From Balanoglossus misakiensis (Eukaryota > Animalia > Hemichordata), in the NCBI GenBank assembly GCA_040954595.2, contig CM082593.2, positions 6,020,072 to 6,084,071 on the forward strand: a DNA stretch of 64,000 nt, in the 5' to 3' direction. The notes beneath the pieces are model-generated. The model had not been told where the DNA came from. It worked only from the letters and a program-made list of their open reading frames with translations, and searched no databases. Positions 8,921 through 35,999 of this stretch are shown here, piece by piece. The position numbers and the translations under genes are program-made. Numbering within the stretch: the stretch's first letter is position 1; every line of letters begins with the position of its first letter.

Positions 8921-9060
8921 TCACGGCGATGGTGACGATGTTGGCACATCGTTGCATGTCCTGCAGCACAGTTTACTGTAGCCCGGAAGTGAGCAGTATT
9001 CGTTGAGAACTTCCAAACTACAGAATATTGACTTGTCTCCGAGACACTCATTTTCAGCCC
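8921..9060 (-). CDS. ADAMTS3: ADAMTS2/3/14-like exon 23 (PLAC domain, stop)
   Basis: tttcag| then [45 protein letters not shown]; PLAC motif typical of ADAMTS2/3/14. Confidence 0.95.
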
Positions 9061-9272
9061 CTGAAAGAAAACAAACACAATGGGTGAGAAATACAAGTTC
9101 GACTTTTGGCTGCTAAATTCGTAGCAAGTGTCATAGATGATTGTGTGTTTGGTCGGTTGCCGGACACGTGGACAGTCCCTGTGATTAGACCAGTTTTGCC
9201 AGTGGGCCGACAAATTTAATTTTAAAGACATGATTTGCGGGACGGTGCGGAAAGTACAGCCGATGACTTTAC

Positions 9273-9411
9273 CTGCACAAGGCCCGGCATCACATGACCT
9301 GGTCTCTTCTGGTCTGGGATAGTCGTCACATTGCCAAGAGACGGCTTTTTTGTTCGGATACCCACAAACCACCTGTCTTCGTTGTGTTCCAACTCCACAC
9401 GATGCAGAACA
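9273..9411 (-). CDS. ADAMTS3: ADAMTS2/3/14-like exon 22 (TSR4)
   Basis: ttgacag|CSASCGVGTQRRQVVCGYP..RPEETRSCDAGPCA|gtaaag. Confidence 0.95.
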
Positions 9412-9546
9412 CTGTCAAGAGAATAGAAGACATTTTTGTGTCTTTATATGATATTTAGCGACGTATATCGATAATTCATACGGCCATACCTGCCTCTACA
9501 TCAACATGATTGTTTTAGAAGGCAATAGATTCCAAGAAGTACTGAC

Positions 9547-9757
9547 CTTTGACCATTCGCCAGTTTGCCAGTATGCCGGGCATGCGTGCCTGTTACAGGC
9601 TTGCCGATTGGCTGGTTTTCCACCCCTGCAGTGACGCTGGTGGACTGACGTAGTGACGCCATTCTCCGTTCGCATACAATTGACATCGCGAATCTGCCAT
9701 CCTGCGTTTCCACAAGTCTTGGAACAGTACTCCCATTCGCTCGTAATCCAATCGTAA
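9547..9757 (-). CDS. ADAMTS3: ADAMTS2/3/14-like exon 21 (TSR3 and start of TSR4)
   Basis: tttacag|YDWITSEWEYCSKTCGNAGWQIRDVNC..CNRHACPAYWQTGEWSK|gtcagt. Confidence 0.95.
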
Positions 9758-9915
9758 CTGTAAAAGACATCACGATGACCAGGTTAGTACTATGCACGTG
9801 TGTCGCCAACGACGGCAATCTACTATCAAAATCAGCTGTAGATATAGCTATTCGTTGTAAGGCGATGTCTGATTGGTCGCGGTAATCCTGGCCGAAGCCC
9901 GCCATCAAAACCTAC

Positions 9916-10051
9916 CTGGCGGTTTCACAAGGTTGCACGTTACAACTTCTTCTCCTGTCCTTCTGTGGTTGGGTTTTTGCATTGCATAATCTTTTACTGA
10001 CAGTTTTCTTGTCCGTCTTCCTCTGACAGATCAATTTGAAGTACTGCTCGC
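9916..10051 (-). CDS. ADAMTS3: ADAMTS2/3/14-like exon 20 (TSR2)
   Basis: tttcag|EQYFKLICQRKTDKKTVSKRLC..RRSCNVQPCETA|gtaggt. Confidence 0.95.
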
Positions 10052-10337
10052 CTGAAAACATGAAATAATAACGCAAAAAATCATCAATCAATCACTGTTC
10101 GTGCATAATGAAAAATCCAGTGTCATAATTTTATCTAACACGAACAGAGGTCTGAATTGGGTCTAACGATATGATAGGGGTGTACACATATAAGGTATAG
10201 GTTTGTGATATGTTGTTAAGGGAATTCGCCGCATAAATGGATAAAGATACGTCACATTCAGCATCGTAGCATCAAATTTGGCGCCGGCGCCAAATGTAGC
10301 AATAAATGCAGCAGACGAGACTACACAGGAGACTTAC

Positions 10338-10524
10338 CCCCATCGCACGGCCTACTGCACTGCGACCAGCCCATTTCCACCCAATTGAACCTCGAGTTGG
10401 CGTTGGGTATCCTGTTGGCTACTCTTATATTGCTGTTGCCATCTTTGACTTGGGATTTTTCCACCGTGTATTGGTATGAGACCTTCATTTCGATGTTCTC
10501 TTCTTCGTCCGCCATCGTTCGCAC
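10338..10524 (-). CDS. ADAMTS3: ADAMTS2/3/14-like exon 19 (end of spacer, start of TSR2)
   Basis: ctacag|VRTMADEEENIEMKVSYQYTV..FNWVEMGWSQCSRPCDG|gtaagt. Confidence 0.95.
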
Positions 10525-10771
10525 CTGTAGATGTAATTAAGAAGTAGGTTAAAGAATTTCTCGATCCCACGAGTATTCACGTGTTCTCCAGCATAGTTTT
10601 CACCATCGTCCGCTCGCCAGGTCGTTGGCTCGACCACAGTCTCCCTAAGAGCAAGACATTGGCGGGCGAAGATGAGTTTTATTTCTTTCCTTCATCTTTT
10701 TCATCTTAACCCCAATTCACTGGAAAGCAGTGGCCACATGAACTCACGGGAAGATAAGTGCGTGAACTCAC

Positions 10772-10938
10772 AAGAATGACGAGATCTGCCGAGAGTGGCC
10801 CCTTGGCCGTCAGTCTCTCTCTGTCGTGTCCCACGGAGAAGTGGAACAGAGTTCCCGCCGCCACAAAAGTGGCGCCATCTTCGTCGTTTATCGTCTCTCC
10901 CTTGAAAATGTATCGGCCAGTCTCTTTGTCTTTGACAG
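10772..10938 (-). CDS. ADAMTS3: ADAMTS2/3/14-like exon 18 (spacer)
   Basis: attcaag|VKDKETGRYIFKG..FVAAGTLFHF..ERLTAKGPLSADLVIL|gtgagt. Confidence 0.93.
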
Positions 10939-11138
10939 CTTGAATTGAAAAAAAGAAGTCAAAATTTTAGGGAGATTTAATACAGTATCAACAATTACAC
11001 AATTGAAGCCGACTTCGGTAGTTGAACTTTTCGCCATTTTTGTTCGTTTTAACAGCCTTTCCGTTTCCAAATAGGCAAAATCTAAAATAATCACCAGGAT
11101 CACACGCTGTTAGGATTTCGTTCGATTGGCCTACTTAC

Positions 11139-11219
11139 CAAAACGATGCTCCGACGGCCGCGTTTCAAAAATATCAATATTGCGAGTCCCCTTGAATAGC
11201 GTTACAATCCGTTGATATG
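11139..11219 (-). CDS. ADAMTS3: ADAMTS2/3/14-like exon 17 (spacer)
   Basis: ctttcag|YQRIVTLFKGTRNIDIFETRPSEHRF|gtaagt; 81 nt, phase 1-1. Confidence 0.92.
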
Positions 11220-11575
11220 CTGAAAGAACCATGATAAACTTTGAATAATAGGGAAAATATAATCATATCTGATATATCTAAATGTGGCATTTAGTCGGTA
11301 TGTCACACAACATTGGCCACATACGCAACCTATTTTTGAACCCACAGAGTACATGTACTTTTTTGAATACAACTTCGATACTGGTGTAATCACACGCGTG
11401 TAAGGTTCAACCATTGTCTATATTTGTGAAATAATGAGATCGTGCATTTTTCATCTGCACTGCAGGTTGTCGTTTGGTCAAATTAACAGTGGTATGCATG
11501 GAACAAGACATGGAACAAGACAAGCAGACTTTGAAGAAAAGGTACGCGATTCTAGAGATTTTTGTTGATGCTTAC

Positions 11576-11696
11576 TTTTCCTTGGTATTTTAGCGTAGGT
11601 GCCAGTGATAGTTTCACACGACGTATTATCTCCATTGCAGACTCCGCAGTGGTCCTCTCGCGCTGGGGAGCCTAAAATATTGTCACAGCCAACAGA
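11576..11696 (-). CDS. ADAMTS3: ADAMTS2/3/14-like exon 16 (Cys-rich)
   Basis: atttcag|[40 protein letters not shown]|gtaagc. Confidence 0.96.
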
Positions 11697-12175
11697 CTGA
11701 AATGCAAGAGGTGAGGTAAAATTAGAAGCTATATATCATCGGTTAATTGGTGTGGTTTATATTACTCATCGCTGAGGTAGATCCCGTTTAGTTTCCACCA
11801 GTCTAGATTACAATCATCACGACTTGCATTGTCTGTGGTCTCTGTCTGTGTGACCCTTTCCAATTAATGACCCACTTCAAAGGCCAGTTTGCTCAGCCGG
11901 GGGCAGCACAAGGGCCAAATTTCGCCAAAATTAGAAGCGAGTCGACAGTAAAATTGTATGGAAATAGAATCCATCTGATGGGTCCTTGACGGGAATTAAT
12001 CCGCGAATCTGTGATCGAGTCTCCTTCGCGAAACTTTGGTGTGAAAATGGGTGTGTTCAACCACCACCCGTACTACTTGCTTCAAGTTGGGTTCATTGGC
12101 GAATTTTATAGTCACTGCGGTTATTTTGAGGTGTAACACACTCAAAGTACGGAATGAAGGGGAGAAATTACTCAC

Positions 12176-12309
12176 TTGACATTGACCTTGTACACATACG
12201 TCATCACCTTGGTCATAGGAACACCTGGTTCCGTCTATCACATTATAACTTGACACTATGACGTCATCGGTTTCCTGGGAGATACACGTAAGCTTGCACT
12301 GCAATGAAT
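12176..12309 (-). CDS. ADAMTS3: ADAMTS2/3/14-like exon 15 (Cys-rich)
   Basis: ctcctag|SLQCKLTCISQETDDVIVSSYNVIDGTRCSYDQGDDVCVQGQCQ|gtgagt. Confidence 0.96.
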
Positions 12310-12455
12310 CTAGGAGAGAAGAAACGGAGGACGTGCGTTCAAAATTTCGCTTGTTCTTAATTATGTAATTTCATTTTTTTAAAGTCAACATTTCCCTAAT
12401 TATTTTTATTTTGACATCTTACATCGCAGGTTGTCTAAAACGCGCCAAAACTTAC

Positions 12456-12567
12456 CGTTTTTATTTTCATGGGGTAGCCATGTATGCTTCCTATTCTTGT
12501 ACTTCCAGTTTTGGTAATTGTTTTCACACTGCTGAGCTCTGAAGTCCATGTTAGCATCTGGACAATC
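12456..12567 (-). CDS. ADAMTS3: ADAMTS2/3/14-like exon 14 (Cys-rich)
   Basis: gaacag|DCPDANMDFRAQQCENNYQNWKYKNRKHTWLPHENKN|gtaagt. Confidence 0.95.
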
Positions 12568-12680
12568 CTGTTCGCAAAAGTCGACAAGGATATTTATTTG
12601 TCATTGCAAAAAGAAATGAATATCCAACAATTCTCTTATATATTATATTTGTACTAAAGAGGGTAAATTATGCCCCATAC

Positions 12681-12744
12681 CTGTGCGTTGCAGAGTCTGA
12701 ATTCCACATTTTGCCCTTTGCAATCGTCACCAGAAATCGATGGC
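12681..12744 (-). CDS. ADAMTS3: ADAMTS2/3/14-like exon 13 (end of TSR1)
   Basis: atattag|PSISGDDCKGQNVEFRLCNAQ|gtatgg. Confidence 0.93.
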
Positions 12745-13009
12745 CTAATATGGGAGAAAAATGTAAGAAATGAGTCAATAGTGTGGTCGTATACTGGCAG
12801 TGGGTGAGGCTTTAGGTGAACAATCGTCCGCCATCATCAGCAAGATAGACATCAAACATTTTAAAATTCAAAATGGCCGCGAAATGATAAATTTTGTGGG
12901 TATTATTTGAAGTGAAGCAGGGTGGTAACTCTAGAGGGCGCTATCCAACCTGGTGGAATCGTAAGCCAAAAGTGTACACGAGGCGTGATATTTGTTATTT
13001 TTCACTCAC

Positions 13010-13149
13010 CTTGGATTATTGCATTCCCTGGTTCTCATCTGAGCGCCAATTCCACAGGTTCTCGAACATTCCGTGTACTCACTCCAATCACCCCACGCAC
13101 CGTGTACAACCTGCACCGTGGATTCTACACATTCGCCGTCCATACAGTA
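13010..13149 (-). CDS. ADAMTS3: ADAMTS2/3/14-like exon 12 (TSR1)
   Basis: tttgtag|YCMDGECV..HGAWGDWSEYTECSRTCGIGAQMRTRECNNP|gtgagt. Confidence 0.96.
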
Positions 13150-13502
13150 CTACAAACAACAACAAAACAACACAATGTCAAAACCACCGAAATAGTACCT
13201 TTGTCGCATTTATCAAAACGTGGTAGTAGTTCTAACGAAGTGGTCGTCAATAATATGAAGGTTTTCGTCTCGTTCATCTCTAGATTGCGATCTAAGTTAC
13301 CTTTCTATATACTTTCAACAGTCTACATTTTACTCTAATATTTTCTCGTTTATTTTATTTGTCGGCCATATATTCTTACACAAACTCTTTGTCGGTTATC
13401 AGAGCATGAATATTTCACCGTTAGAGGGCACACCATGCATCATCCTACGATAAATTCCGCGGGAACTTCTGATCGGCAAAACATATGAAATGTAGTTCTC
13501 AC

Positions 13503-13616
13503 CCTTCCTCTTCCACAGGGAGTACCGGCCAATGGCGGACCTTTTTTCGTCTTACAATGAAACGGACTGTCTGGATGGGTACACCACAGTTGCTGACAGA
13601 TACTAACACCAGAAAT
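13503..13616 (-). CDS. ADAMTS3: ADAMTS2/3/14-like exon 11 (disintegrin-like)
   Basis: cttacag|[38 protein letters not shown]|gtgaga. Confidence 0.96.
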
Positions 13617-13812
13617 CTGTAAGTTGATTTTACATTAAGTTATTTAGAGACGTTATTTCAAAGTTGAGGGATAAACCAGAATTGTTGTATATATAGCCTA
13701 GTATAGCTGCTGCGTTCAACCAACGCTTAGTGCGCGAGCGAACGTGCAGACACTCTTAAGTTCAAGTTGGACACGTGTTGAAATTGTCAATCATAAAACG
13801 CGGGATACTTAC

Positions 13813-13948
13813 ACCAGAGCAAAACCTGTATCCGTCCCCGAAATCAAAACGACACTGGTCGTCCGCGGTGTACCTGAATCCAGGTAATTCGCCGGTAACA
13901 TCCGGGAACTCGGCAGCGAAAGGGTCGTCGTCCAGGCATATGTAGGTA
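13813..13948 (-). CDS. ADAMTS3: ADAMTS2/3/14-like exon 10 (end of catalytic domain, disintegrin-like)
   Basis: gtgaag|TYICLDDDPF..ELPGFRYTADDQCRFDFGDGYRFCSG|gtaagt. Confidence 0.94.
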
Positions 13949-14104
13949 CTTCACGGTACGAGGTAGAAATCAGAAAATAAAATCAGTGAGTCGAAGACGA
14001 CGAGAAACTTCAATCTTAGCGTACAGTACGTGCATACGAGGAACCAGTTCGATGTCTTTCACAATAAAATTGAAAATGCAATATTTGCAAAGCGATGAAC
14101 TCAC

Positions 14105-14248
14105 TTAATGTGATCTTCGAGTTCCTGTCTACTGCACGCCGACCAGAAGTAGGTATTGAAATTGGCCTGCACCAATGGAGCCATGATGCTTCCCATGTCG
14201 GCCTCATCCGAACAAGTATTGCCCTGACCGTCATGCTCCATTCCCAAG
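14105..14248 (-). CDS. ADAMTS3: ADAMTS2/3/14-like exon 9 (third Zn ligand, Met-turn)
   Basis: ttttctag|[47 protein letters not shown]|gtgagt. Confidence 0.97.
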
Positions 14249-14403
14249 CTAGAAAAGTGGAGGAAGGAAATAATGTTACAAAAACAGAAGAATGCTGTTA
14301 CCACGTCTTGTGAGGGCTCGCTAACTGTGCTGAAAACCAAACATTGAAATGCCATCTGGTAAGAAGACCGTACGGAGAAGAATTCGACAAAACCCTGACT
14401 TAC

Positions 14404-14509
14404 ACATGGCCTGTTTCGTGCGCCACAACAAAAGCTGACGACAGACCGTCCTCCTGATTTAGGGTACAGCTTCTGAAGAGATGGCACATGCCTGTGACGG
14501 GGGCATAGC
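14404..14509 (-). CDS. ADAMTS3: ADAMTS2/3/14-like exon 8 (HExxH active site)
   Basis: tttgcag|[35 protein letters not shown]|gtaagt; with exon 9 gives HETGHVLGMEHD, diagnostic of the procollagen N-proteinase subfamily. Confidence 0.97.
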
Positions 14510-14800
14510 CTGCAAATGAAAGAAAAACAGAAACCTTGAAATGCAACAATTCGAGTTTTGCACAGTGTTTAAAATCACGAAGAAAGATTGGGCTCTAGTG
14601 TCTCAAATGTAGTATAATATAACAAAAACAGGCTTGGGGTTCAAGACCACAGAAAAAAAGCAGATTTCAGAATCTTTTTGAAAAATCGCGCATTAAAACA
14701 GAAGAGAAAAAAAAGAAAAAATCATAATATGACGAAAAGGGTGAAGAAAAACTTTGTAAAATTAAAAATGTGCGAAAACGTGCAAAGACGATTTCCTCAC

Positions 14801-14945
14801 CTGCTGGCCCGAAAACTTGCCTAGAAAGAAAGATGGCGTGATCGTGATGTGGCTTATCAGTGTTGTCCTTATTCTGTTGCGCATTGGCCCATTTGCACAC
14901 ATTCTCAAGGCTTTTGGATGGATTGTTTAGTATAATAAGGTTACC
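14801..14945 (-). CDS. ADAMTS3: ADAMTS2/3/14-like exon 7b (canonical copy, catalytic domain)
   Basis: tttgtag|[48 protein letters not shown]+G|gtgagg; 145 nt, phase 0-1. Confidence 0.95.
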
Positions 14946-15037
14946 CTACAAAACAAGAACATTTTTTTTTCTTTCTTTCACAAAATGTTTACACCGACCG
15001 GAAGCACACGACACACACTGTGACGTCATTGTCTCAC

Positions 15038-15185
15038 CTGCATTGCCAAAATCTTGCCTAGTGAGAAAGACGGCGAGATCTGGGACCCGTATGTAGTCCC
15101 AACTGGCGGACTCAACGCGGTCTACTATCCAATGACAAACATTGGCTTTGCTGATTGGTGCATTACGATAAATGATGAGGTTAGC
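15038..15185 (-). CDS. ADAMTS3: ADAMTS2/3/14-like exon 7a (diverged duplicate; predicted mutually exclusive alternative exon)
   Basis: Branch point gactaac, acceptor cttgtag|ANLIIYRNAPISKANVCHWIVDRVESASWDYIRVPDLAVFLTRQDFGNA+G|gtgaga; 148 nt, phase 0-1, no stops, aligns to exon 7b. Confidence 0.85.
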
Positions 15186-15759
15186 CTACAAGATAAGAAG
15201 ATGTTAGTCGGGAGATAAAGGCTTGTTAAGGAAGAGCATGCCGGATGTGACGTGAATGGAGAGAGAGAGTACTGTAATGCGTAATGGTGATGATCTGGTC
15301 TTATGACAAACCAGCTTGTTTGTTGATACTTAAATGTGTTTACAGACACCTGCGTCTCGGCTGTGGATAACCACGATTATTAAAATGATTTTAGATGGTA
15401 GATGAAAAGAAAGGAAAGAAAAGAGAGAGAGAGACGAGGCCATATTGATTTTGTTGCCAATTTGTCCGGTTATATCTATTCAAGATCATTATACCAAGCA
15501 CATTAGTATTTATTGAAAATTTAACAAATAATTATTACACCCTTTCAGTCAGGAGAAATAGACAAGGCTCTCCAAGATAAGCAATTTATGTCCATATGGT
15601 CAATATTTGAAATTCAAAATGGCCACCGGTTAAATTTGAAATTCAAAATGGCTTCCGACATCTACTTTTAAGCATCCGAAATGGGTGAACTTTAATGATT
15701 TAAATATTCTAAGAATCTCGTGCAGCAGTCGAATTATAGATGTATGTCACGTGACTTAC

Positions 15760-15843
15760 CTGACTGGCGTCTAATAGGATGATCTTGACCAGTACTATGT
15801 TGATTTCAAGTCCGAGAGTTGGATGTTTGTAAATGTTATTGAC
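15760..15843 (-). CDS. ADAMTS3: ADAMTS2/3/14-like exon 6 (catalytic domain)
   Basis: tttcag|VNNIYKHPTLGLEINIVLVKIILLDASQ|gtaagt; 84 nt. Confidence 0.96.
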
Positions 15844-16682
15844 CTGAAACGCAAAATGCACATGCAATATAAGGAAACATATTCCACGTAGTGTGTTGCC
15901 CTGCGTCACTCGCTCACGACAGTGGACAATTGTGAAGACTGCACCACTTGCCCTCTTGGGCGTGTAGCATTTGTCAACTTTGTCGGTGCGTGGCGACGTG
16001 AAAGGAAACAAAACACCATGGAAACGGGTTACCAAAACAAACACACGCTGTCATTCTGTCAGAAATGATCGGCAAACTCATTAATTACTGGCCATTCGCC
16101 CTCGTGTAATTAATCATCAAATTTTTTACCGAAGAAAGATTTTTTCGACTCCCAGGGCGCCACTGACATAGATACCATAGCGCAAGTGTGGAGGACAAAA
16201 TATAAAATGTATCGAGTAACATCGGTTCAAGGATGAAGTTATGAAGTGTATTATCACACCTCTCAATTCATTATAGATGTTTTTGTCAACTTTCTCCCAA
16301 CATCTGCTGACAATCAAAAAGAATTCAGGCCCAGAATAACAACTTTAGCCTAGATTGAAATGACATTTAGTAGAGTGCTTGTCAGTTTTGATCGTGCCGT
16401 AATGATTACAGAAAGTCCGTTTCGTTGTAGCTCGATGTTGACTTCAATAACGGCCTAAAGAAAATAACTGTTGGTGGTCATGTCATCGACAGGGCCATTA
16501 GCTTGGGTCAGAGGTCAATGATCATGTCTAGAACATCTGCTTTTATCATCCACTTCAAAGATTGTCTCTCATTGTCATATCAGTCTATAAAGACACCTTA
16601 TATGGACTGTTTTGATTTATTAGAAGAAGCTCGCAATGCCCGTGTGTCGGTCAGGAGACGCCATGTTGGCGCGGATACTTAC

Positions 16683-16861
16683 AATATTCATAAGAGTGAG
16701 TAGGTAAAGTTGGATTTTCGTCGTTCCGTGGAAGGCCACGACTGAGTGATCCGCCGTCAGCAGGACTTCCATGTTCTTCTCTCCCGTTCCCCGTCTCACT
16801 CTCTGCTTTATGTTATCGCCAAGCAGAGTGCTTGCTTCGCCAAGAAACCTTGGCGATGCAA
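16683..16861 (-). CDS. ADAMTS3: ADAMTS2/3/14-like exon 5 (furin site RVRR, start of catalytic domain)
   Basis: gttacag|ASPRFLGE..KQRVRRGTGEKNMEVLLTADHSVVAFHGTTKIQLYLLTLMNI|gtaagt. Confidence 0.95.
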
Positions 16862-17570
16862 CTGTAACGAAGACGGCACATATATATATATATATATATC
16901 ATTAGTGTAAAGAGACACAGTTGTGGGGACGAGTGTGCAGTCTTAAGGTTGCACAAAAAAGTCCATCAAAAAGATGTCGCTCCTGTTTATCATTGATCAC
17001 CGATGTTTGACACATCAGTGGCAGTGGAAATAAACTGGAGCCTGTGTTTGCCTGACAGTGCTCCGGAGCGTCCATTTTGAATTTTAGAACCTACGTCAGC
17101 TCGAGACAATGCGCCATATGCGGTTATGTGTGGTGAAAGTACATTGTGTCAAAGATCAGGCCAGTTTGCTTAACCCCGTGATCTTCATTTCAATATGCGT
17201 GGACACAGAAATAGTTGGTGGGCGCGGAAGGTACAATAGGTTAAATGTTAATAATATTATTGTGTAAAAACAATTGAGCCTGTGACTGCTCGCTTCAACG
17301 CACACATGTAATTTATACTGGCCCCGTGCGTTGTCCAGACGTTCAGTTGACTACAAACTGGGCGTGAGATACTGCCACTGTCTAACCCGGATGAAAGTTT
17401 GTCGTTACGCGGGTACCCTCTGAACGATGAGGGCACTCCAGGCTCTCTGTCGATTTGGCACATTATCTTGGCATATTTGGAAAATATGTTTGCTTCCATA
17501 TTTTTTCGAATCTGTATTGGCCAAAAAGGAGTTTGTGTCTCCATTGAAATGTAGTGCAGCGCTGTCTCAC

Positions 17571-17733
17571 CTTCAAAATCATCGTGGGCTCGCCTCTCCC
17601 TGGGTTTGATGGCGGACCTTTTGTAGATCACGTGCTGACGGCCGCTTTCCGAGTCCCCTGTTTGTGACGTCACGTTCTTCTCCTCGAGGGGTTCGATGAA
17701 ATAGTCCTCGCCGTCAACTTGTATGAGCCCCGC
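17571..17733 (-). CDS. ADAMTS3: ADAMTS2/3/14-like exon 4 (prodomain)
   Basis: attgcag|AGLIQVDGEDYFIEPLE..GRQHVIYKRSAIKPRERRAHDDFE|gtgaga. Confidence 0.95.
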
Positions 17734-20700
17734 CTGCAATAACCAATCCACACGTGATAATGTAAAGTTAGATATCATGTCAGAATCTCAGTTGAAATGG
17801 CGTCAGTTGCAAGTCTGCTTTATGGTTCATTGGCCAACACACGCCAGAGAGATTTTACTTATCCACGAGGTTGGTGACCGGACGACTGGGAGATTCGGTG
17901 TTACAGTTCAAACTAAAGCTTCCAATCTCTGTGCAGTATAGAGACATTCCCAGAACTTAACTAAATTCGTCTGTGCTGGAAGGCAGGAAGCCATTTGCAT
18001 TTTATCATAGCCATGAATGTTTTACTAGTACTACAATAACTTAACCCTTACTTAACCCAAACATAATTCCACAAGAACAATCGCTTTCTGAGAAAAAATG
18101 TGGTGCACCAGTCGGTCCGAGTCGTAGGAACTCTGAGACCAACGTAAGGCGCCGACCACGTCCGATTTAATTGGAACATCATGATTTGTCATGATCTAGA
18201 GAAATTCATTTTAATATGATTGGGTGAAAGTTTGTCATGTGACGTCACTCGTACGTGTTACGGAAAATCAAACTCCTCCAATATGCAAAATAAATCTACC
18301 AACATCAAAATAATGATACTATTCCCGAATGGTGTTTATGTATTTCTCTATGTATTTGTCTGTCTGCTTTCTGTCGGCCTGTCTGCCTGTCAGTGGGAGT
18401 CCTCTAACTAGAATCCTCTCCCGGGCATTTAATGCACATAAGAAATTGAGTTTGACTCACGACTCTACTCCCACAGTCAATTTGTAAATTCTTATCAAAC
18501 GATACGGTGTCTTGTTCAACTTAAACAGCCCATTACCGAACCCCTTCCGGTAATGCATTTTACTCCTCATCTTTAAATTTTCGCCGCCATTGTTCCGTTT
18601 CTTATCTCTCCTTTCCAATTTACAGCGTCCGCCTGCCAACATTCTCCTGTCAGGGTTGTTTTAATTCTCGTCTCTGTGATGAGGCGAATGTCATCGTTAT
18701 TCGATGCTCGCGCTCATGGTCACTGCGGCGGAGGGGGGGGGGGTGTCGGCCTCTCAGCCTTCATGCCACGTCGTGGTACTTAGCGTCCGGAGGGGAGGGC
18801 GGGATTAAAAACCCACTACTCTAAGCGGTATATTGGGATTTAACAGGAAAGCTCAGGCTATTAAAACAACAAACTTGAGAACGGGAGAGCCCACTTAGTA
18901 CAGCGGGGACAGTGCCCTCACCTAACGGCCCAATATTGAGTCAACTCAGCGCAGCCTTAATGCGTCTAGACGGTGCGTGTCCTTATCAAGACTTTCAGGT
19001 CAAACAACATTTTTTTCCACCGTTTACTTTTCATACTCATTTGGTATGATAGGACACGCGTACATAGAAATCTCTCGAGTGAAACCACATCCTGTTTGCT
19101 CTATGGTGGCAACAATAGCCACTTGTAAGCGATCAGGGGCAGCTTGTTTAACGTGACATTGATTGTGCTACCCGGGAGAATTCTCTGCAAGTAAGAGCCA
19201 GGCATGAGTTAATAATTACATTTTCTGTGACAGTCCCGTTATTCCGGCTGGCTAATGAGCTCAACTTCCTTTCTGTAAGGTTATGCGTAGCTGGAGCCTC
19301 GTCCTCAAGGGACCTCGGACGCACGCAAAAGACCCCGCTGACTTGGCACCTCACCAGTGCAGTACAAAACACAGCAAGTTGTCTTGATTTGATTCGTACA
19401 ACTATATGGACGTGTTAACAAGAGCAAAGTCACTCCCTTGTTAAGTTTGCTCAGACACAGAGGGTTAAATTCCTGGGCCTTGTTGAGCATTCTCTGTCGC
19501 CTGAGCAGCGCTCCCACCCTGCTAAAACATTTTCCTTGCACAGACAATCGGCAAATATTGCATAGGGTAAAAGTCAGTTTACCCACGTAGAACCCCTCCC
19601 AACCGCACGTGGAATCCGGGCCTCTGGATAATCCAACGATACACTGGCGCCAATTATAACCGAAAACTAGGGCCGTGACACACATCTCAAAACTCAACCG
19701 AAGTTCTTAGGTTTCGCCGATAATTAACTCATCGGCACTTTGAACGGTTTTGTCTTCTAAATCTAAAATAAATCTAGGTCAACGCGCATATTATGCATAT
19801 TTTCGATTAATCCGATCATATCCACCGCAATCGACCGTCATTTGGAACGCAAAGTAGCGGCTGTACATGTTTCATCTTGACAACTGTTACAAGTATTCAC
19901 ATATGTATGTGTCTGTATACATTATAGAAACCCAGATCACTAGCAATATCGTTTTCTACATAGCACTAACGACATGATATTTGAGGCGCAGCGACAACAG
20001 TGCAAGAACTTCTGAGTGGCAGCACTAAATTGGCCACACTCAAAACCAAACGTCTCTTAGTCAGCACTGCGCTCGATTCTCGATTCACAACATCGACAAC
20101 TTTAATTTGTACACAATTAGCAATATATCGAATACCCTTCATAACGGTGTCGATTGATCTGACAAGCCGAAGATTATATATATGATCCTCGGCCACGGGT
20201 GTGCATTCTTGTTCGGATGAGTCCTCTCCCGTGACGTCTCAGAGTTGTCCCAGGGTGACCCTCAAATTTCTGAATGACAGAAATGCACAAGCGAGCGGTT
20301 GTAAGTGTCACCCGAGCCGCTTAGAGTGTTGAGAATCGAGCCTGACAAGATTACGAGCAACACTTGAGGTAGGCGCACCGCCCAGCGGGGAAGAGTGACT
20401 TCATAACCGCTCTCTACCATGGAAACCCTTTCGGTAGACTTTGAGGGTTATTTAAGGACGGCTTTCAAATTCCGCCGGTCGGCCAACCAAGGCCGATTCG
20501 CGCCACATACAATGCACGCTCCTACCTCCCAAGTTCTTGGAGATATTGTGTCACTGTCCTCGCTCTTTAATGAAAAGAAAATCTTCAAACCAGACGCCCA
20601 GAGAATCCTTTAATCAACTGCCTTCTTCTCTTACGTCACAGAGTGGTCGTCCTGAGCCATCTAATGAAAACACGATCACGAGAAAAATATCCAGTTACCT

Positions 20701-23700
20701 GCAGTCTGGTTTCAATCGACCCGAGGAGGAGCGACCAGAAAAGAATCTGGGGTCGGCTCTCGATCAGACACGGGTGTTGTTTGTTTACTTGGTCTCTGAG
20801 TTTTCATCTTCAACACAAATTGGCCAATTCTCAGTCCGACGGAAGAGATGTATTCCCCATTTCGATGTTCTCTCGCATTTAATGTCTTCACTGAATTTCC
20901 AAAGCCAGTCTAAGGAGTGAAGTTTGCAAATACCGATCTCTGACCGAAAGAAATGACAGAAACTGGTTTTCGATAATTTCTGCTCCAAGTCTGTCCAAGC
21001 GCAATGCCGATCATGAATATTCATGAGCAACCGCGAAGTAAGACATTTTAAGTGGCTACTTCCTAAATCTCCCACTTGAGTCGATGCTACTGTAACCCAG
21101 TGTCTTTGAGGGCAATGTTTACGTATTCTGCGTCCAAAGCACTTCAGCAGGCCGGGTGCCAATACTTGGAACGGCCGAGCAAACCGCCGCATAGATGATT
21201 AATCTGGACCAGATCTCGACTCCGACCACTTGCCTGGTTATCGAGCGCGATGACAGGGATTAGCGTCCATGTTTACATACATATACATACATATGCGAGC
21301 TGCGCATACCATAACGAAATCGGGTTTCACCGCCCAAACATGAGAGTTTGTTTAAATGATGGCAGAGTTACCACTACGGTGTCTCGAGTGACACCGCACG
21401 CCGGCAGTCCAAACACGCATTCGAATCATATTTTCAAAACACACGGAGGAGTCGACCCCGCCAGGTCACCACTCTGCTTACACTGCTATCATTATAAGTC
21501 CACGGATTCCAATTATCAAACATATGGAAATATGCGGTTATGGATCTCGTCAGATGCGAATGATAATAAAATGTAGGCATGGATTTCAGTTTGTACAACT
21601 GTGAAACGTTTGCATTTGGCTGCCGTCTGCACTTTTCGAATTATTTGACGTCGGTACTGGTGCATAGTAGTGACGTGGGTTCCCTTGACCACAGGTGCCT
21701 GGAGATGTCGAACGGCCTAAGCTTTAGTATACTATGTATGTATTTTATATAGTGTACTGCAGCTGAGGACGTTTGACGTCTTCAGGCACCTGAGCCTTTT
21801 ACAAGGGCACCTTCCCAAACGACTTTATAAATACCACATTTATTTTGTGGCTATTAATTCTATGTCAAATCGCGAACGCACTTTTTATGTCTCTACGACA
21901 AGACTTGCGTGAGATTTGATGGTCACGTATATATTTATCATGTCTCATAAATCCAGCGAGCGATTTCAGAGGCCTGGTATTTTTTTTTTCTTTCCCATGC
22001 GATGATGTCGCATGCAATGTAAGACGAGGTCGTTTGCTTAATACGATATTCATGCGATTGTTTGTCAAGATGTGATTTGCGTTCCGTGCAAAGTTGGTCG
22101 TCTGATTAGTCGCACATTGCGTTCACAGACAGACCCTTTCACCCCCATTTTCCCGCTTGTGGGACAAACCACTCCGTTGCAAACATCGGGGGTTGGACAG
22201 AAATGACACAGCCAAATGGGTAAGGCAGCGTGGATTCTGAATATCCTCCATTGGACATGTTTATCAGGAGTCGTGAAATGCGGCGAATTCCAAACAGACG
22301 CAACCCAGCGCTCTGTTATAAACGGAATGTTGGCATTTCATATTTATCCCTGCATAAAAGAATCACCAGTCTCCTTTGGTGGTTGACAGTTTTGCTCCGA
22401 AACATCCCATGCTCCCAATCAAACATTCTCCATCTACCGTACGTCGGCATGGAGCTTCACTGTTATGGGTCATCGTGTTCCAAAATGCGGATAAACATTT
22501 AGAAACGGATTATTAAATTCTCTAAATAACCCACATAAATATAATATAGTTACTGGTGTCGCCGAATAATCATGCAGTGAATCTGTTGATATGATCGACA
22601 GTGGTGAGGTCGACTTTCCCATTTAAGGGTAGCACATCTGAGTTAATGAGGCAAGGTTCCTGCTTTTCATCAATTCTTCATTACAGTTATATCCAAAACA
22701 AAGTTTGATGCGAGACACAACTCGTGCGTAGCGTGACCCGAGACGATGCTCGCTTAGAGTACAAGGTGACCCCGGACATGTGTGGCTCGAGGAAGACATT
22801 AGAATACATGGCGGCGGTAGGCGACCGTGAGAGAAACCAAACTCGATTGTAGACCTAACAAAAATAGAGACCCAGTCTGAACCGAAGTTCGTGTCGACTT
22901 CTGTGATTTTGTTTATGCCTCCAGAGTTAAGTAGTTGATTATTTGAACGGCCCGGTGATGTTGCCTGATCAGTCGCGCTGACAGAGAGAAACCAATTTTG
23001 CGGTTTTCGTGTTCGGCGAGGAGGTAGCGCGCATGCGGACGAACCACCAGACGCACCGTGTATATATACATCCTATAGAACATCCCAGAAATGAAAACTG
23101 GAGATCTCAGAATTACAATTTAACAGAACACCGCCCTTTGCGAGATATCAACTTTGGCCGTTTCAGAGCGGTAAAATTTAACAACCCTGTCTAAAATCTA
23201 TCTGCACGTTTCTGTCCCCATTTTAATATATCTCCCCAAGAGAAACTGTGCAGACCGTGGCCGTAGGGGCTAGTCTTAATATTTAGAACAGGTAGCGGTA
23301 TTTATACCACTCGGACAAAGAATCGATTGTGCCAACAACTCGAACTGGCTAAACATTTATTACTTCGAGCAGCGGGTCGATTTAGAAGGCATACAAGGAA
23401 TTAGCGCCGCCCTTTGTTCGTCCACCGAGCCCATACACCGTGCAGAAATTAGTCTTTTAAGCGACACTGCACATGAAAGTCCCGCAAACACTGCCGCTGA
23501 TTGAATGAAGTTGTCAAGTTTACAGGACTTGTGGGAGCATAGGCCGCGGTTCCAATTGGCGGGACACGACTAAGCATGCGATCTTTAATCCCGTGAGAAA
23601 ATGAGCAAATTAGCGATCACTGAGGAGAAGAAAAAAAGAAACCCAAACGGTGACGACTGGTGGATGTAATGACGTCATAGACCCGACTGGTGACTTTTCC

Positions 23701-26700
23701 TTTTTTCAAATATTTATCGCTTTCACAAACTTTCTTGTTTCAACTTATAAGCGTTGGATGGTAACGGAAGTGCGCTATTTTAGCCGTCTTGCATCCATAA
23801 TTTGCGCTGATGTTTTTTGACTCTATTTCGAGTAATGCGCAGTTCAACTATACGTTCTGCGTTTTTCCTGTGTGAAAATTGTCGGGGGGTCGTTCTCCCG
23901 GACCAAATTACTTTTCAGGGCAGACGTGATGAGCTCAATCAGCCCTCGCGAACAAAATCAACAGTCTTCAGACCACCTTGTCCCCGCGGCCCAGATTACA
24001 CGTTGCCAGGAGTTACGCAGTGATTCCAGATATAGTAACGCCTCGGGCGGCGGGGGGGGGGGGAGTGATCGGAAAAGAACGCGACTATTATTGGCTTTTG
24101 GGCTTTGTTGTACTATCGTACTTGCACCTGTTTTAAACCGGGTTTCTCGGTAATGGAAAGACGGTCTCAGGCATAAACTCTCACCTAGGGTCCGCGTCCG
24201 CGTCGTACCGTTTATAGAGTCGCCCGGGTTATCTCATCCATACCGTCCAATTAAAGCGCGTCTACGCACGCTATGAAAATGAACGCATCAGATAATCGCT
24301 CCTTAATTGAGTGACAAAACACTAGCTGATTACCAATCACAACGTCGCTACAAGTAACACATGTCCCCCCGGGGGTGGCAAATTTAACCACAGACCACAG
24401 AGTGCTCAATAACAGAACAGGACACAAAAGTATTGGACTCGACCATAGATTGAAGCCCGCTACTACCAACTCAGGCACGCAGCTATTTCTGTCCACCCTT
24501 CAGCCGTATCAAAATAAACGATGTCGACATCGCCATGGAAACAAAGTTCAGTTAGCGAGGGGCCCATCATCTGCGCTATGAGACCACGTCTGGTTTCCAT
24601 GACAACGGACTCTCGGATAGCAAAGGGGCATCACAACATTGCTCCACACTTTAAATACATTATTTTGAAGAATCAGCGCCAGTAGTTTGGCGATATAAAC
24701 AAGAATTACATTTATAGTCAAATGTTTTCCTTAAAAGGGCAAATAAACCGGCTAACAGTTCTTCTATTTTTCTTAGACAGCCGTTAACTTTCAGGACTCT
24801 CATTTGCGGTATCAATACAACGCTTGCGTTTGACACCGCGCTGCTGTAAGGACTTGTTATTAAGTAAATGAGAATTCTTCTCATTTCATATCACGGCACA
24901 TTAACTTTTTTGTAAGCGAGCCAAAACAATAACATTACTGTCTTATGAAGCCAGAAGAAATAACTAGTTCACATGTTACATTTACTGGGTCAAGTTTTAT
25001 GCGACGAACAACCTCTCGCTAAGGGAGACGTTGTCGTTCCCAGGAAATATTGTGGTTTTGAGGTGAAGGATCGTTCGTTAGGTAAACAGTTTTATTCTCT
25101 ATGCGCCATTTTCAGATTAAGGCTCTCAAGAACGTTGAGTGCCCTGCTCTTTGTTATGAGTTCTGAGGACTGGAAACCTGGCAACGGACGGTAACTTAGC
25201 AACAGATAAACGACTCTGACATCACGCAAAAATTGCGACGTCAGTGATTTTCGTGTCCCTACATATTTGGCCTTTTATATTTTTGTAAGATGTTAATGTT
25301 TTTTTCCCGAACAGATTAGCGAGGTATTTTCGTAACGTGAAAAGTCTAATTAGGAAAATGGGGCGGGAAGAAGCATAATTTGTATTTCTTCTCGTTTTAA
25401 ATTAAACGCTGACTTGAGAAAATAAAGTCGGCCAGACGCTAATAGCGTCACCCAAGCCCCAGCTTTGCCCCTTACGACTCAAACTGCACGAATGTAGCAT
25501 ACCGCCGTTATTTTTGTACGCCCGTTGTAAAGATAGTCCACAACGCGATCATTTAACGGATTTATGACCGTTTAGTTTTAAAATATTGCTAAATCGGTCC
25601 GTTGCGAAATAGCGCCAAGGGTATCGGATCGCTAGTCGTACAGAAAAAAGGTTGCTCTGGTTAGCATGTATACGGGGATCTGATATCTGCATATGTGCGG
25701 CTGAACCTCCTGGAGAGCAGTGATGAAATCATATCTGTCGGACAGGCGACGCCGAGGCATGTTTCTGCCAACGTAGCCGAACCGAACCGCCAGATTCAGT
25801 AAATATGTTGTGGTATTGTTTGATATCAACAGCAGGCGTCTGTTTGGGATACATGTGGCTACAAGAAATGAAACATGTTGAATTTCACAGATTCAACTCC
25901 GGCGTTTTCTGACACCTGAATGGAACAGTTAACGGCTCCGGGCTCGCACAATGCCTCGATTCTTGTGCTGCACAGTGATCAGGTCAATTGCGTTCCTTTA
26001 ACGTTAGGAATGCTCTCGCCACAACTGCCTTTGTTGCACTGGGGAAAAAAAGGAAGTCTTTGGGCGAGTTTTTCGACCAACATTCCTCGCGCTCGAACGC
26101 CGCAACAAAAATAACCGAGAGAATGTTTCATATCGCCCCCCCCCCCTCTGAATGAACAGGTGAATTGTGGCTGAACGTGAAGTGTGTCAGGCTACGCCTT
26201 TGCAAGTCAACGTCCTATTGGTCGACGATGACTCGCACGCAAGCTTTTTAGCCGACTGTTGGCGAATCACGCTTCGCGTTACAATGAAGATTTCTGTAAC
26301 GGGCAACCAGCTGCTATACGGCAATTACCAAGTCTCTAGTTGAAGTAGCATCGTTTCACACTACGCGACAAATTCAAGATACGGCATAAAATTCTTGAAG
26401 TTTCTGCCATAGTTTTCTGTTCGGAATGGTCTTCCGAAACATAATTTCCGGCAACAAAATACGCAGGATTATATGCGTTCCTTCTTAAAAAAGAAAAAGT
26501 TCACGAGCGCGCAGCTTGATAGATTCGACTGGGCATGGGATTTCAGAGCGCACGCTCTCCCAATTATAGCAAAATGTGACTTAACAAAAAGTACGAGATG
26601 CGGTTGAAGTCAATGACGTCACATGGTACATGTGCTTGACTTCAAAAGCACGTGGTTATATTAGTATTTGGCCACTACTACCCATGAAGTGGGTAGTAGT

Positions 26701-29700
26701 GTTTGGCCATAGACAGTAAAGGTTTAGCTAAGCAGCTCGTGAAAGAAGACGCATCCATTACAGTGTAACGTATAACTGTATTTTAATAGCCTGTGAACAA
26801 ACATATTTGAACCGAGAACCATGGCCTGCCTGATATGAACAAGTGAACTTTGACCTTTCCATAGCTCCTGGCATTCTCAAGTGAAATTATTGATACAGAT
26901 ATTTTAACGCGATTTCATTCCCTTCCCTATTTCATGTCAAATCCTCCATTAATTCCAAGCCAAGCGTATGGCGTACTTTCGTTCTTCACAACCGTGCGCA
27001 TAATTCCCGTGGAAGATGACGTTTTCTTGCATTTTGGAAAACTTGTGAAAAAAACTCCGGCTAGTGACAGCCGCGGAAACCGTTGAAATAAAATCCCGTT
27101 TCATTACGATTGCCCTTTGAGAAGTATGTGTGTGATGCTATCTTCTATTTTTATTGTCTTTCGTACGGTGCAATTACGACATCAACCCCGGCGCTCCGTC
27201 GCGTCCGTGGTTCATTATCGAGCTCGTGTGTCGGATACGGGCCCGCACTAAATTTGAAACAAATCCACGGGACCACACAGAGTCAATGATAATTTAAAAA
27301 CCACAAGATTCCAATGGAAATTCCTGGCGGGATGAACGCGGTTTTTTATATATTTTGTCTCCCCGAGTTGACGGAGACTTGGAGGGCCAATTAAATCCCG
27401 GACAACGGCATTTCCTAATATGGTCATTTCACGATACCGATAACTGGAGTTGGAAGAGGTTTTAGCAGCCGTACGGGGCTATGCATTCTTAGGGGGGGGG
27501 GGGGGGCTTTAAAATCCATTTCTTATATATAGATACGTTGCATGCGGGGTGAGATGAAATCGTGAAAACAATCTTTCTTTTCTTCCAAGGTCGTTCATTG
27601 TGACCAATACAAGTAATCATTTCAGTTATATATCATTACCAAGTTCTTTACGACGAATGACCGACTAATAATACTATTTACTCTTTCGTTTATGAGTTCG
27701 CCCGCTGTGATAGATAATTATACCGCATTTACGAGATGGTGACCTCTTGTGACCCGAAGCATGTAAAACCGCGGACCCCACACATAAAAATAGAATTTCA
27801 ATGAATATCAAGAAGGTCTTTTATCGATAAAGTATAACTAGAGTGATCCGTGATCAAGGCGCATTAAACTCTGATGTGAACCGGCTTTTTTTCAAAATTG
27901 ACATAGTACGTAAGGCAGCCTCCTTTTAGAAATCTGACTACGTGAGCGATTGCAATCGCAGTGACGTCATATATCCTGGGGGTAAACTAGAAACCAGAGT
28001 CTAATGTTGAAAGGGCTGGCCCGGTTATAGGAGAAGTTGTGAACCGTGACTATCGGGGATGAGCAATGGCGTGTGGACGATATTCATTAACATTCTTGAG
28101 ACCGCAATACTGCGTGTAAAAATCTTAAGGCCCCCGTGCATGCGTGTTTGAATGTATTAACGATGCCAGCTAAACCGAACGCGCATGCGCAAATTTTGTT
28201 GTAGCCAGACAGCCTGTGTGATCTGTTTGCCGAACAACGCATCAATAGTTTCGCACAGCATCAAAGCGGCTTTCGCTAATTAGAAAGTATCAATACTCCG
28301 GGCTTTGTGAGTTGTCGCGAAATCTGCCACCCCTCAGGTGAATTGGCCAACGGGAGCATCATTAGCCATCATCAAATCAGGCTTGCTAAATGTTGATTTT
28401 ATTTTGACGAACTGTTGAAACTAACTACTGTACTCTCAAATAATTAAGATTCGTTAATAAGCACAGGGATTTCAACCAAGATCATTGTTAATTGGCATTC
28501 TAAACTGTTTCACAGATCAGGTTCTCTGCAACTCCGTTGTCGGTGGCGGGGCGGGGGGGGGGGGGCAGACGACACAAAGAGAGCGAGATTTTTGCGGTTC
28601 ACTACTCTCCCAAGCCAAAAAATGCCTGTAGATCAGCTGTTGATGCCGAATGATGGCTGCCCTGATTAATTAACCGCCGATGGCATACGTCCCATGGCAC
28701 GTGAAGCCCGCCACTGGACGGAGGAACGACAAAAAGCTCCGCGTGAACTCAATCGATAGTCGCTGCGATGCGACTCGCTGGAGTACTAATACGCACGCCA
28801 TTCTGGTCCACGATTGGCCGCACACGCCAATGCACGGACGCGGTGGCATTGGAGTAATGTGATAACGAACCTCAATAAGCGCGTAAGCCGAGGTCTCTGC
28901 CAAATGATTCGACCCTGACAAGTGTTCAAATACCAGTAAGGCACTAATAACGACAACACCATAAAGCGACAAACGAACGAACGAACAAAGACAGGGAGCC
29001 TTCATTTCGAGGTTACAAAAATGACACTACTTCCACGTACATTGTGTAACCAAGGCTAAACTTGAAGATGGTAACCCATTCCAAAATAGCACAGAGCAAA
29101 CAAATACTATTTTCAATGACCATTACCCATTGCAACTTTTAAGACATTTGAAACATTCGACTCTTGATTGAAATCCTTTGAACAGATAAATTTGAATCGC
29201 CATTATTTCCAGTTGTCATGACCACACAGGTAATTCATGTCTTCGCCTGACGTATTTCTGCGTCTGTTTTCACTTCTGTCGTACTTCTTTAAGTTATTCG
29301 ACAAGAATCCCAGGAGCGATACTTAAAATCCAAGTACCGAATGTTAAACATATGTACGGAATGTAAGGAGATGGTGGCGTTTTATTCCCCCATTCCACTG
29401 ACGTTTCAATATTTTTCTAGATGCCTTCTGATTATTTTGAATGAAAATACACTAAATGGCGTCTAGGCACGAAATCGGTGCACTTAAAGTCACCGTTGCA
29501 ACAAATCTGCTCTTATTTTTAGGTGTAAGTGCAATCTCATTTCGATACCTTTGCATCCGGTTCGGACAGAAATAGCCCGATAATCCAGATATCGCATTTC
29601 CATGGGAACCAGTGAAATAACTTCCTTATTGGCTTAGGCCTAAACTATTAGAGGTTAGTGAGAAAAGGGTTTCAGTTGGATGGAGGAAATTGATACGGCT

Positions 29701-32700: not shown

Positions 32701-33653
32701 GTGGGAAAGTTTACTGCTTACAGAGGTTACCTCTGCGAGTACGGTATCCGTTCCCCACGAGGACCCACGTCAGCTGGTCGCCCCGAGCCGTGGAGTTCAT
32801 TTCTGGTCAGCCCAACCTCTCCCACCAAATACAGGGAACTACAGGAAATCGATGAATTTATGGGCCTCTGTGTACTAACTAGTTTATACAATCTGCACTC
32901 TCTGATATACTAGTATATTAGATGGGAAGGAGTGCGTGCTCTCTGATGTCTGGCATATATTAAGTTGTGGTGTCTCTTCAATGAGTTTGGAGACTGCGCG
33001 TTCTTGTTTCTGTGCAGACGGAGAACTTTCTTTTGGGGCCATACAAGAAAACCCCTTCCGTGACTTGACTGTCCATCGATCACAGTGAGAAACGTTTATT
33101 ACTTTTCTCTCTCTACTGGCATGCTTTAACGTCATGCTTTAACAGGCGTTGCACTGAGCTGAGAAATGCGCTCGGATGCGTGCAGCGAATCGGCACCGCC
33201 GTCGTTTAAGGTTCTCGCCGGGGGGGGGGGGGGGCACAGACCCTCGGCGATGGAGCGTAGCTGTCCATTGTTCGAGTGAATGCACACGAACACTCAAAGC
33301 GACCAACATCGTCTGGGCCGCAGTGTAACTGTTTGGCCAACATGTCACACCAGCTGATCTGCCGACACCGAACTAGGTCACATGACATCGGATCGCGGCG
33401 ATGAGAAGTCGCTCGTGGCGTTCTCGGGTCAGGTGGCACGGCGACACCTTGGTTCCGTGTTTTTGATGGTAACTAACCTTATCATGACTCTGTAAGGATG
33501 TTTTCACCTTACATTTCAAGCCGAATGAAAAGCCCCCGTGTGTGCATTCGAAAAGACTGTATTCTGTGTCCCCTTCAACACCCTAGGTGCTGACACTGTG
33601 TAATTAAAGCTGGCGTGATTTTAAAAGCTCTGGCATTAGAAGTGAGAACTTAC

Positions 33654-34051
33654 CAAGCCGTCGCAGTTGCTAATGGCAACAGTGGATCCAGGCGTATCTT
33701 TCACATCCCCTACATAGAAGCACTCTTTATCAATTTTTTCCTCTCGGAGGTAATCGCCTTCCACGTTTGTCCACTCCATCACGGCTTTGGGCGCCAGCAG
33801 GTGACTGTTCGGGTGCACGTTTAAGGTGAATTCCGACCCGAAAGCGCTCACGGAGAAATGCAGAGATTCCTCGCCAGCCCCGCCCACGGGCTGACTTCGG
33901 CGGTGGCGGGTGCGTCTCGCAGACTCCGAAAGTAGTTCGCTGTCGCCCACGTCCTCGCGGTCAGTGAGCCGGTGAGAAAGAAAACGACCGTCGGACGTCG
34001 CGAGGTAGGGAACAGTGATGTCATAGTCCGTCAGCTTGGAGTTCAAATGAT
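33654..34051 (-). CDS. ADAMTS3: ADAMTS2/3/14-like exon 3 (prodomain)
   Basis: caattag|HLNSKLTDYDITVPYLATSDGRFLSH..RRTRHRRS..LHFSVSAFGSEFTLNVHPNSHLLAP..CFYVGDV..VAISNCDGL|gtaagt. Confidence 0.95.
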
Positions 34052-35446: not shown

Positions 35447-35492
35447 CTTGATCCGTTGCATGACGCCCTTGGGGAACTAGTCCTCCTTGGAC
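35447..35492 (-). CDS. ADAMTS3: ADAMTS2/3/14-like exon 2 (short)
   Basis: ttggacag|VQGGLVPQGRHATDQ+G|gtaagc; 46 nt; phase 0-1 is required to join exon 1 (phase 0) to exon 3 (phase 1). Confidence 0.85.
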
Positions 35493-35936
35493 CTGTCCAA
35501 AAAAAGCAGGGATAAAAGAGGACACACAGAAGCTTGTTAGCGAAGGTCTTTGAGTATTAACTGGGCGTCGGGCAAGTTTGTGTATACATGGGATTTGGTA
35601 TAAATAAATGAAGGCGGTATTGTGTGTGTTCAAACAGGCTTGGCATATATCCCGCGTAAGCAAAAGCGAGCCAACTCTCTGTGTGTCAAGTGCATTTCGG
35701 ACCTGTGTGAACTGTGCTCAGTGCTTTCCAGACGCTGTCACTGAGGTTCCCCGTTACGTGACAGACCGTGATTTCCTCGGACTCACCGCTGGCATGAGCA
35801 GACGAGGAGAAGAAAGGGCCCGCATTATTTCCCGCATTTACAGCCACGGGGCTCTCCCTTTCCAGACTGTAAAAACAGAAAAAAGGGGGATTTTACTCGC
35901 ACACATGCACACAAACACAAATTGAAAGAAACTTAC

Positions 35937-35999
35937 CTGCAGGATGGCCAATGAACAGACGGCAGTTATTGAAATGCAGATAGTGTGAAAAACAGTCAT
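35937..35999 (-). CDS. ADAMTS3: ADAMTS2/3/14-like exon 1 coding part (signal peptide)
   Basis: aaagATG; MTVFHTICISITAVCSLAILQ hydrophobic leader; donor CAG|gtaagt. Confidence 0.85.

Follow-up and report, generated by a model that had tools for sequence, protein, structure and literature searches.

Can one hemichordate gene make two ADAMTS protease domains by choosing between two copies of a single exon? The question is raised by a stretch of Balanoglossus misakiensis DNA of 64,000 nt (the window), in which two homologous exons, 7a and 7b, stand in tandem within the catalytic domain of one predicted gene (Table 1).

Judged by its predicted protein, the host gene is an ADAMTS2/3/14-type protease. 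The gene model was identical to the ADAMTS3-like protein P0002 of Ptychodera flava at 730 of 1,021 aligned residues (72%) and reached 67% identity with an ADAMTS3-like protein of Glandiceps talaboti, and it could be matched colinearly, exon by exon, to P0001 and P0002 from the prodomain to the C-terminus. The domain order was prodomain, M12B with the zinc motif, disintegrin-like, TSP1, Cys-rich, spacer, three more TSP1 and a PLAC-type end, with the names taken from the Pfam lists of P0001 and P0002 and from the available part of PMC4349717; this is also the order in vertebrate ADAMTS2, ADAMTS3 and ADAMTS14, the procollagen N-proteinases. Two extra 5' exons gave a signal-peptide-like start and a total of 1,069 aa; they completed the model, and the exon numbering of an earlier annotation made from the letters of the DNA (the sequence-only reading) proved right. 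With the 7b peptide as query, two of six candidates were the ADAMTS3-like proteins of G. talaboti and P. flava, and the best 120 of 1,265 matches to the P. flava catalytic region were ADAMTS2, 3 or 14 where named, with few unnamed or hypothetical ones. In the available text of PMC4349717 the ADAMTS2/3/14 clade is rooted with single non-vertebrate deuterostome genes. On its match to P. flava (41/45 residues, vs 18/45 for 7a), exon 7b is the standard exon of the gene. Further downstream in the model, the acceptor assigned to exon 9, GAAG at 13948, has a low matrix score of 2.8, and the following acceptor, at 13616, scores -5.1; for both the frame agrees with P. flava.

Table 1. Positions in the window of the host gene, the exon pair and the neighbouring elements.
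Feature	Position	Strand	Description
Host gene, ADAMTS2/3/14 type	8921..35999	(-)	predicted 23 coding exons with one of the pair; 1,069 aa with 7b
Exon 6, shared, upstream	15760..15843	(-)	phase 0 end; 25/28 residues identical to P. flava P0002
Branch-point-like CTAAC (candidate)	15203..15207	(-)	A at -19 from 7a acceptor, then pyrimidine tract
Exon 7a, diverged duplicate	15038..15185	(-)	148 nt, phase 0-1
Intron separating 7a and 7b	14946..15037	(-)	92 nt; purine-rich, then short pyrimidine tract
Exon 7b, standard exon	14801..14945	(-)	145 nt, phase 0-1; 41/45 residues identical to P. flava, 39/48 to Glandiceps
Exon 8, shared, downstream	14404..14509	(-)	edge strand and start of zinc-binding motif; in frame after exactly one copy

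The homologous tandem exon pair, exclusive by reading frame, was confirmed. The coordinates, lengths (148/145 nt), translations, 92-nt spacer, AG/GT ends and phase 0-1 reported for it were all reproduced, and the four junctions named for RNA mapping (15760>15185, 15038>14509, 15760>14945 and 14801>14509) agreed with the gene model. The two exons are consecutive and of similar length, they share frame, phase and canonical ends, and both are open with lengths of 1 mod 3. In the gene model of the window, the frame stays open to the gene end with 7a alone or 7b alone. Joint inclusion leads to TAA at 14943, in the first new codon of 7b, and skipping of both exons leads to TAA at 14461, ahead of the HExxH motif. 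Retention of the 92-nt intron keeps the frame and yet reaches TAG at 14948; the starts of the copies lie 240 nt apart, so 7a, the intron and 7b stand in one frame with this TAG of the 7b acceptor as the sole stop. The claim that exactly one copy must be used thus holds at the protein level, since both, neither or intron retention all lead to an early stop. The frame shift on joint inclusion is a constraint against using 7a together with 7b, as in mutually exclusive exons, and in the available text of a human survey it is the commonest constraint, found in 60% of clusters (bioRxiv 10.1101/133215).

The copies are clearly related, with a global BLOSUM62 score of 68 between the peptides against a maximum of 33 in 2,000 shuffles, and with 20 of 48 residues identical (42%); in the nucleotide alignment 68 of 144 positions are different. 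When the window was scanned with a profile built from the exon family, two copies and no more came up (98 and 16 bits). An intronic duplicate was sought for every other exon of the gene and none was found, the remaining matches being TSP1 repeats or noise. The 20 nt upstream of the 7a and 7b acceptors were identical at 16 positions, a level not reached by any of 230 other pairs of acceptors in the gene (maximum 15). With a matrix built from the other exons of the gene, 7a equalled 7b in splice-site quality: the acceptors ranked 14 (7a) and 18 (7b) of 22 and the donors were tied at 6 of 21. The G+C content of 7a is 48%, vs 33-39% in the three flanking introns. Upstream of 7a stands CTAAC, by its resemblance to the consensus a branch-point-like candidate site.

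Whether 7a has been used as protein was addressed with the family alignment, a set of the best 120 of 1,265 matches, mostly vertebrate, in 119 of which the exon could be aligned (one lacked the anchor motif). Positions at least 95% conserved and present in 7b were called invariant (25 positions), and the 23 others variable. Exon 7a keeps 15/25 of the former and 5/23 of the latter (Fisher p 0.0095). In simulations where the duplicate evolved neutrally and 7b stayed constrained, matched to the 68 nt differences, without indels and with parameters chosen by the analyst, 15 invariants were kept in 1 of 3,076 runs (t 0.5-0.7). When the middle of the exon was left out as one replacement event and rate variation was allowed, the corresponding values were 0.006-0.018 for the invariants and only 0.03-0.07 for the overall identity of 7a (t 0.3-0.4). 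Of all neutral runs at t 0.5-0.7, 1-3% ended with the frame still open and both splice ends present, a figure to be read with the fact that intactness of 7a was the reason the exon was noticed in the first place. Among the identical residues of the two copies, 8 of 18 codons differ silently. At two positions 7a has the majority state of the family, Thr (109/119 homologues) and Asp (Asp or Glu in 115/119), in place of the Ser and Val of 7b. Because invariant residues are kept far above divergence-matched neutral runs, 7a has, on the evidence of these comparisons, been under protein-level selection.

The sequence-only reading described a kept core with a replaced middle, under purifying selection. 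Retention of core residues, and selection on them, was borne out. The losses in 7a (10/25 family-invariant residues) are not confined to the middle, five lying outside it if it is taken as 7b codons 20-34 (P9, S10, L13, E14, H36 and P47 lie outside or at its edge), and ordinary purifying selection is not supported for an exon that changed far faster than any family member. Pairwise dN between 7a and 7b was 0.59-0.67, and dS ran from 1.4 to saturated, depending on gap placement. Since 7b barely changed, nearly all dN falls on 7a, which would give its branch a dN/dS of about 0.4-0.85. A fixed core with a fast-changing surface would fit either a new function or relaxation.

Neither could the duplication be called old, as had been suggested. 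In the trees the 7a branch measured 4.7-6.0 substitutions per site, whereas the distance from 7b to P. flava was 0.12-0.13. The AU test did not separate four datings of the event (p 0.42-0.55, no topology rejected). At four sites 7a equals the ancestral state or is nearer to it, which is no more than suggestive for the dating. The standard exons of acorn worms have Val, Ile or Asn at the position where most homologues have Asp or Glu (7b Val44, 14816-14814); judged from the alignment, the acorn-worm lineage lost the acidic residue there in its main form, and 7a has Asp.

The reading preferred here, with a probability of roughly 60%, is mutually exclusive splicing of the pair, in which 7b would give the main isoform and 7a a regulated minor one. 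Exon 7b would be the default and 7a would be included in some tissue or stage. Exclusivity would be imposed after splicing, by frame shift and decay, with messages carrying both exons or neither presumably removed by nonsense-mediated decay. According to a section heading in bioRxiv 10.1101/133215, human clusters mostly combine a single ubiquitous exon with others that are regulated; the class criterion in the available text of that survey is junction reads from each exon bridging the other. RNA pairing of the docking/selector kind was assessed for one pair of introns, those that follow 7a and 7b, and was no better than in shuffles (30/40); the intron preceding 7a was covered only by a scan for inverted repeats.

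The strongest rival, though unlikely, is that 7a was long used as an alternative exon and is now silent or relaxed, so that the organism makes the 7b enzyme only. It would account for the loss of 10 invariants, the very long branch and its dN/dS, and also for the absence of a 7a-type protein from the entries of three acorn worms and amphioxus. In P. flava (one sequence under four accessions), Glandiceps and Saccoglossus, each protein cluster has a single member, of the 7b type; clustering at 90% would be expected to place a one-exon variant alongside it, which counts against a 7a isoform in those species. No 7a homologue was found among seven protein candidates, in what was a weak search, and 7a had no match in PDB; neither 7a alone nor 7b alone matched Pfam. 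A search of 7a against 1.84 billion representatives gave six matches, all to tandem-repeat proteins, and these were rejected. The amphioxus isoforms X1 and X2 (1,050/1,049 aa) were considered as a pair of the 148/145-nt kind and set aside, as they differ by one Glu in the prodomain. On these protein data, the relatives count against a widely expressed 7a common to acorn worms, and not against a restricted or lineage-specific one. Against silence, 7a has retained its open frame, both splice ends, the branch-point-like motif and an exon-like G+C, and could thus have fallen silent only recently. Moreover, the annotations of other species are uninformative if the duplication is lineage-specific, which is compatible with the tree datings.

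What the mutually exclusive use of 7a would do to the enzyme can be predicted from its place in the fold. The exon was aligned to the metalloprotease domain of ADAMTS13 (PDB 6qig), a distant paralogue used as mapping template, with ADAMTS13 numbers set to chain number + 78 as inferred from residues in the available part of PMC6706451. The exon covers ADAMTS13 Leu147 to about Asp182, with a helix carrying Leu147, Leu151 and Cys155, a strand carrying Asp173, and Asp182. Exon 7a keeps the equivalents of Cys155, of which the disulfide partner is presumably encoded in exon 8, of Trp157 and of Asp173, which coordinates calcium at the rear double site, as well as the following strand and Arg180, and it has Asp at the Asp182 position. 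Relative to 7b, it has Ala for Pro at the Leu147 position, Lys for Leu at the Leu151 position, a replaced Asp166-ligand loop, and Asn for Pro just ahead of the edge strand. In the available text of PMC6706451, Leu147 and Leu151 belong to a hydrophobic patch likely shaping the S1 pocket, and the location beside the substrate cleft, which had been claimed before, is supported by the alignment. Among the solved structures matched, there was no ADAMTS2/3/14 catalytic domain.

A calcium-related difference between the isoforms was considered and dropped. The Ca1 site needs the equivalents of both Asp182 and Glu212, and here 7a has Asp, 7b has Val and the shared exon 8 has Gln; at the Glu212 position, 120 homologues include 116 with His, 2 with Gln and 1 with Lys. 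Because this position is Gln in exon 8, the Ca1 site is probably not intact in either predicted isoform, and its restoration by 7a is not supported, the partner Glu being missing.

The 7a product would be predicted to fold as a protease domain whose surface is altered next to the S1 pocket, and the changes at the Leu147 and Leu151 positions may shift substrate preference at a non-prime subsite. No difference would arise in the zinc motif, on the S1' side or in any ancillary domain, which both forms have in common. It is possible, and put forward only tentatively, that 7a is a neofunctionalised specificity module for another substrate, specific to a tissue or stage, by which one procollagen-N-proteinase gene would become two enzymes, with the first switch of this kind in an ADAMTS catalytic domain. 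The suggestion that it stands in for the vertebrate paralogues is weak, since 7a falls outside the range covered by ADAMTS2, 3 and 14, all of which keep the residues lost in 7a.

The same changes could be taken to mean that 7a is spliced and folded into a weak or inactive protease acting as a decoy or binding form, which is quite improbable. The substitution of Lys for Leu is drastic and was counted against an active isoform, and together with Asn for Pro it belongs to the subfamily invariants lost at the helix and loop flanking the cleft. Yet the zinc ligands and the catalytic Glu are encoded in shared exons and the structural residues are kept in 7a. In alignments, ADAMTS1 and ADAMTS5, which are active enzymes, also differ from 7b at several such positions.

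Still less probable is a role of 7a mainly as a poison exon, spliced ahead of 7b so that the stop at 14943 and nonsense-mediated decay lower the output of the gene. Joint inclusion does give an immediate stop, and the 92-nt intron has AG/GT ends, with an A at intron nt 60 that could serve as the branch point. This intron is the shortest among 21 measured in the gene; its last 70 nt hold no match to YTRAY, and none of the candidate branch As at intron nt 12, 17, 49 and 60 is a clear consensus. A steric block, with a branch point less than 50 nt from the donor, is possible and would oppose joint splicing of 7a and 7b. An RNA pairing could also be cited for the poison exon: exon 6 (15809-15822) is complementary to the diverged middle of 7a (15099-15112) at 12 of 14 nt, extendable by G-U pairs, with -21.7 kcal/mol and 3 of 600 shuffles as strong. 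As the best of 20 pairs of neighbouring exons it is weak after correction (about 0.1), and it could be chance or related to splicing. Against a poison exon, no amino-acid conservation would be needed, yet invariants were selectively kept in 7a.

The least probable of all is that 7a was never used, as a neutrally decaying duplicate or an assembly artefact: the splice-site flanks still alike at 16/20 nt would fit a not-very-old duplication and the overall identity is marginal against neutrality in the middle-less simulation, but the retention of invariants speaks against neutral decay in both simulations and the 68/144 nt differences are too many for allelic or mis-assembled copies.

Tandem duplicated exon substitutions beside enzyme ligand sites are a known class, of which KHK, CAMK2D, ACOX1 and PKM are human examples in the available text of PMC9741552. 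The pair resembles them in having consecutive homologous internal exons, in a swap beside a ligand or substrate site and in keeping structural and ligand residues, and its identity of 42% is near the 44.3% given there for ordered residues. It differs in that those cases, mostly ancient ones, have been validated by transcript or proteomic data, and in that several changes in 7a are drastic and not conservative. Drosophila mind-meld and human ADAM23 are listed in table S5 of PMC9741552 with tandem duplicated exon events; they are metzincin genes like the host, but ADAM rather than ADAMTS, and the table row does not give the affected domain. An ADAMTS case appears new, as there was none among the papers listed in the searches: ADAMTS is absent from the main text of PMC9741552 and from those supplement tables, covering part of 236 human events, that were available, as well as from the main text of bioRxiv 10.1101/133215, the supplements of which may list further genes. 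The sole isoform mentioned in the available part of a review of ADAMTS2 is a different, short one (PMC12362006). Searches on ADAMTS or hemichordate splicing likewise listed no ADAMTS case of mutually exclusive exons, in a literature that covered few subscription journals.

In vertebrate-type genes a single exon had been expected at this place, and one copy was found. A metagenome scan gave five loci from 103 pattern matches, with L001-L003 of vertebrate type and none from an acorn worm; L004 and L005 were set aside, as their match was limited to the short motif. The three vertebrate-type ADAMTS2/3/14 loci have one copy each, within upstream cover of 3,000, 515 and 211 nt that falls short of the previous exon. 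A weak match of 7a in an intron of L003 (E 0.05) was rejected, being without profile support. These loci have the same exon boundaries as the present gene, with a phase-0 acceptor and a phase-1 donor at the same codons, but differ in two donor-like sites 9 nt apart at the 3' end of the exon (L001 ~3140-3155, GT/GT; L002 ~655-670, GC/GT; L003 ~352-366, GT/GT). A three-residue insert at the exon end is present in 37/119 and absent from 82/119 homologues, a count biased by the insert-less query. On these sequences a donor shift, and not a microexon, would explain the optional insert, and in vertebrate genes this loop may vary through a smaller change in splicing. A microexon of 9 nt following 7b was also considered and dropped, as that intron holds none and the vertebrate-type loci have the tandem donors instead.

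The determinants of substrate choice of ADAMTS2, 3 and 14 within the catalytic domain are hard to test. If 7a is expressed, its isoform and that of 7b would have the zinc site and all exosite domains in common, the difference being 48 residues next to the cleft, which would be a clean natural swap experiment, and an invertebrate deuterostome would diversify the enzyme by exon duplication where vertebrates have a 9-nt donor shift. Were the specificity-module reading true as well, the pair would be a natural probe of the residues setting ADAMTS2/3/14 specificity. If 7a is silent, it would be a well-preserved, decaying duplicated exon of little wider interest.

Two minor observations concern the surroundings of the pair. 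A short motif occurs twice at 15605-15657, 29 nt apart, in the intron before 7a, with three more copies at 12869, 5729 and 4628, and probably belongs to a dispersed repeat. An ankyrin-repeat gene (Pfam Ank_2, E 3e-13) has exons at 182-2051 on the minus strand, downstream of the ADAMTS gene.
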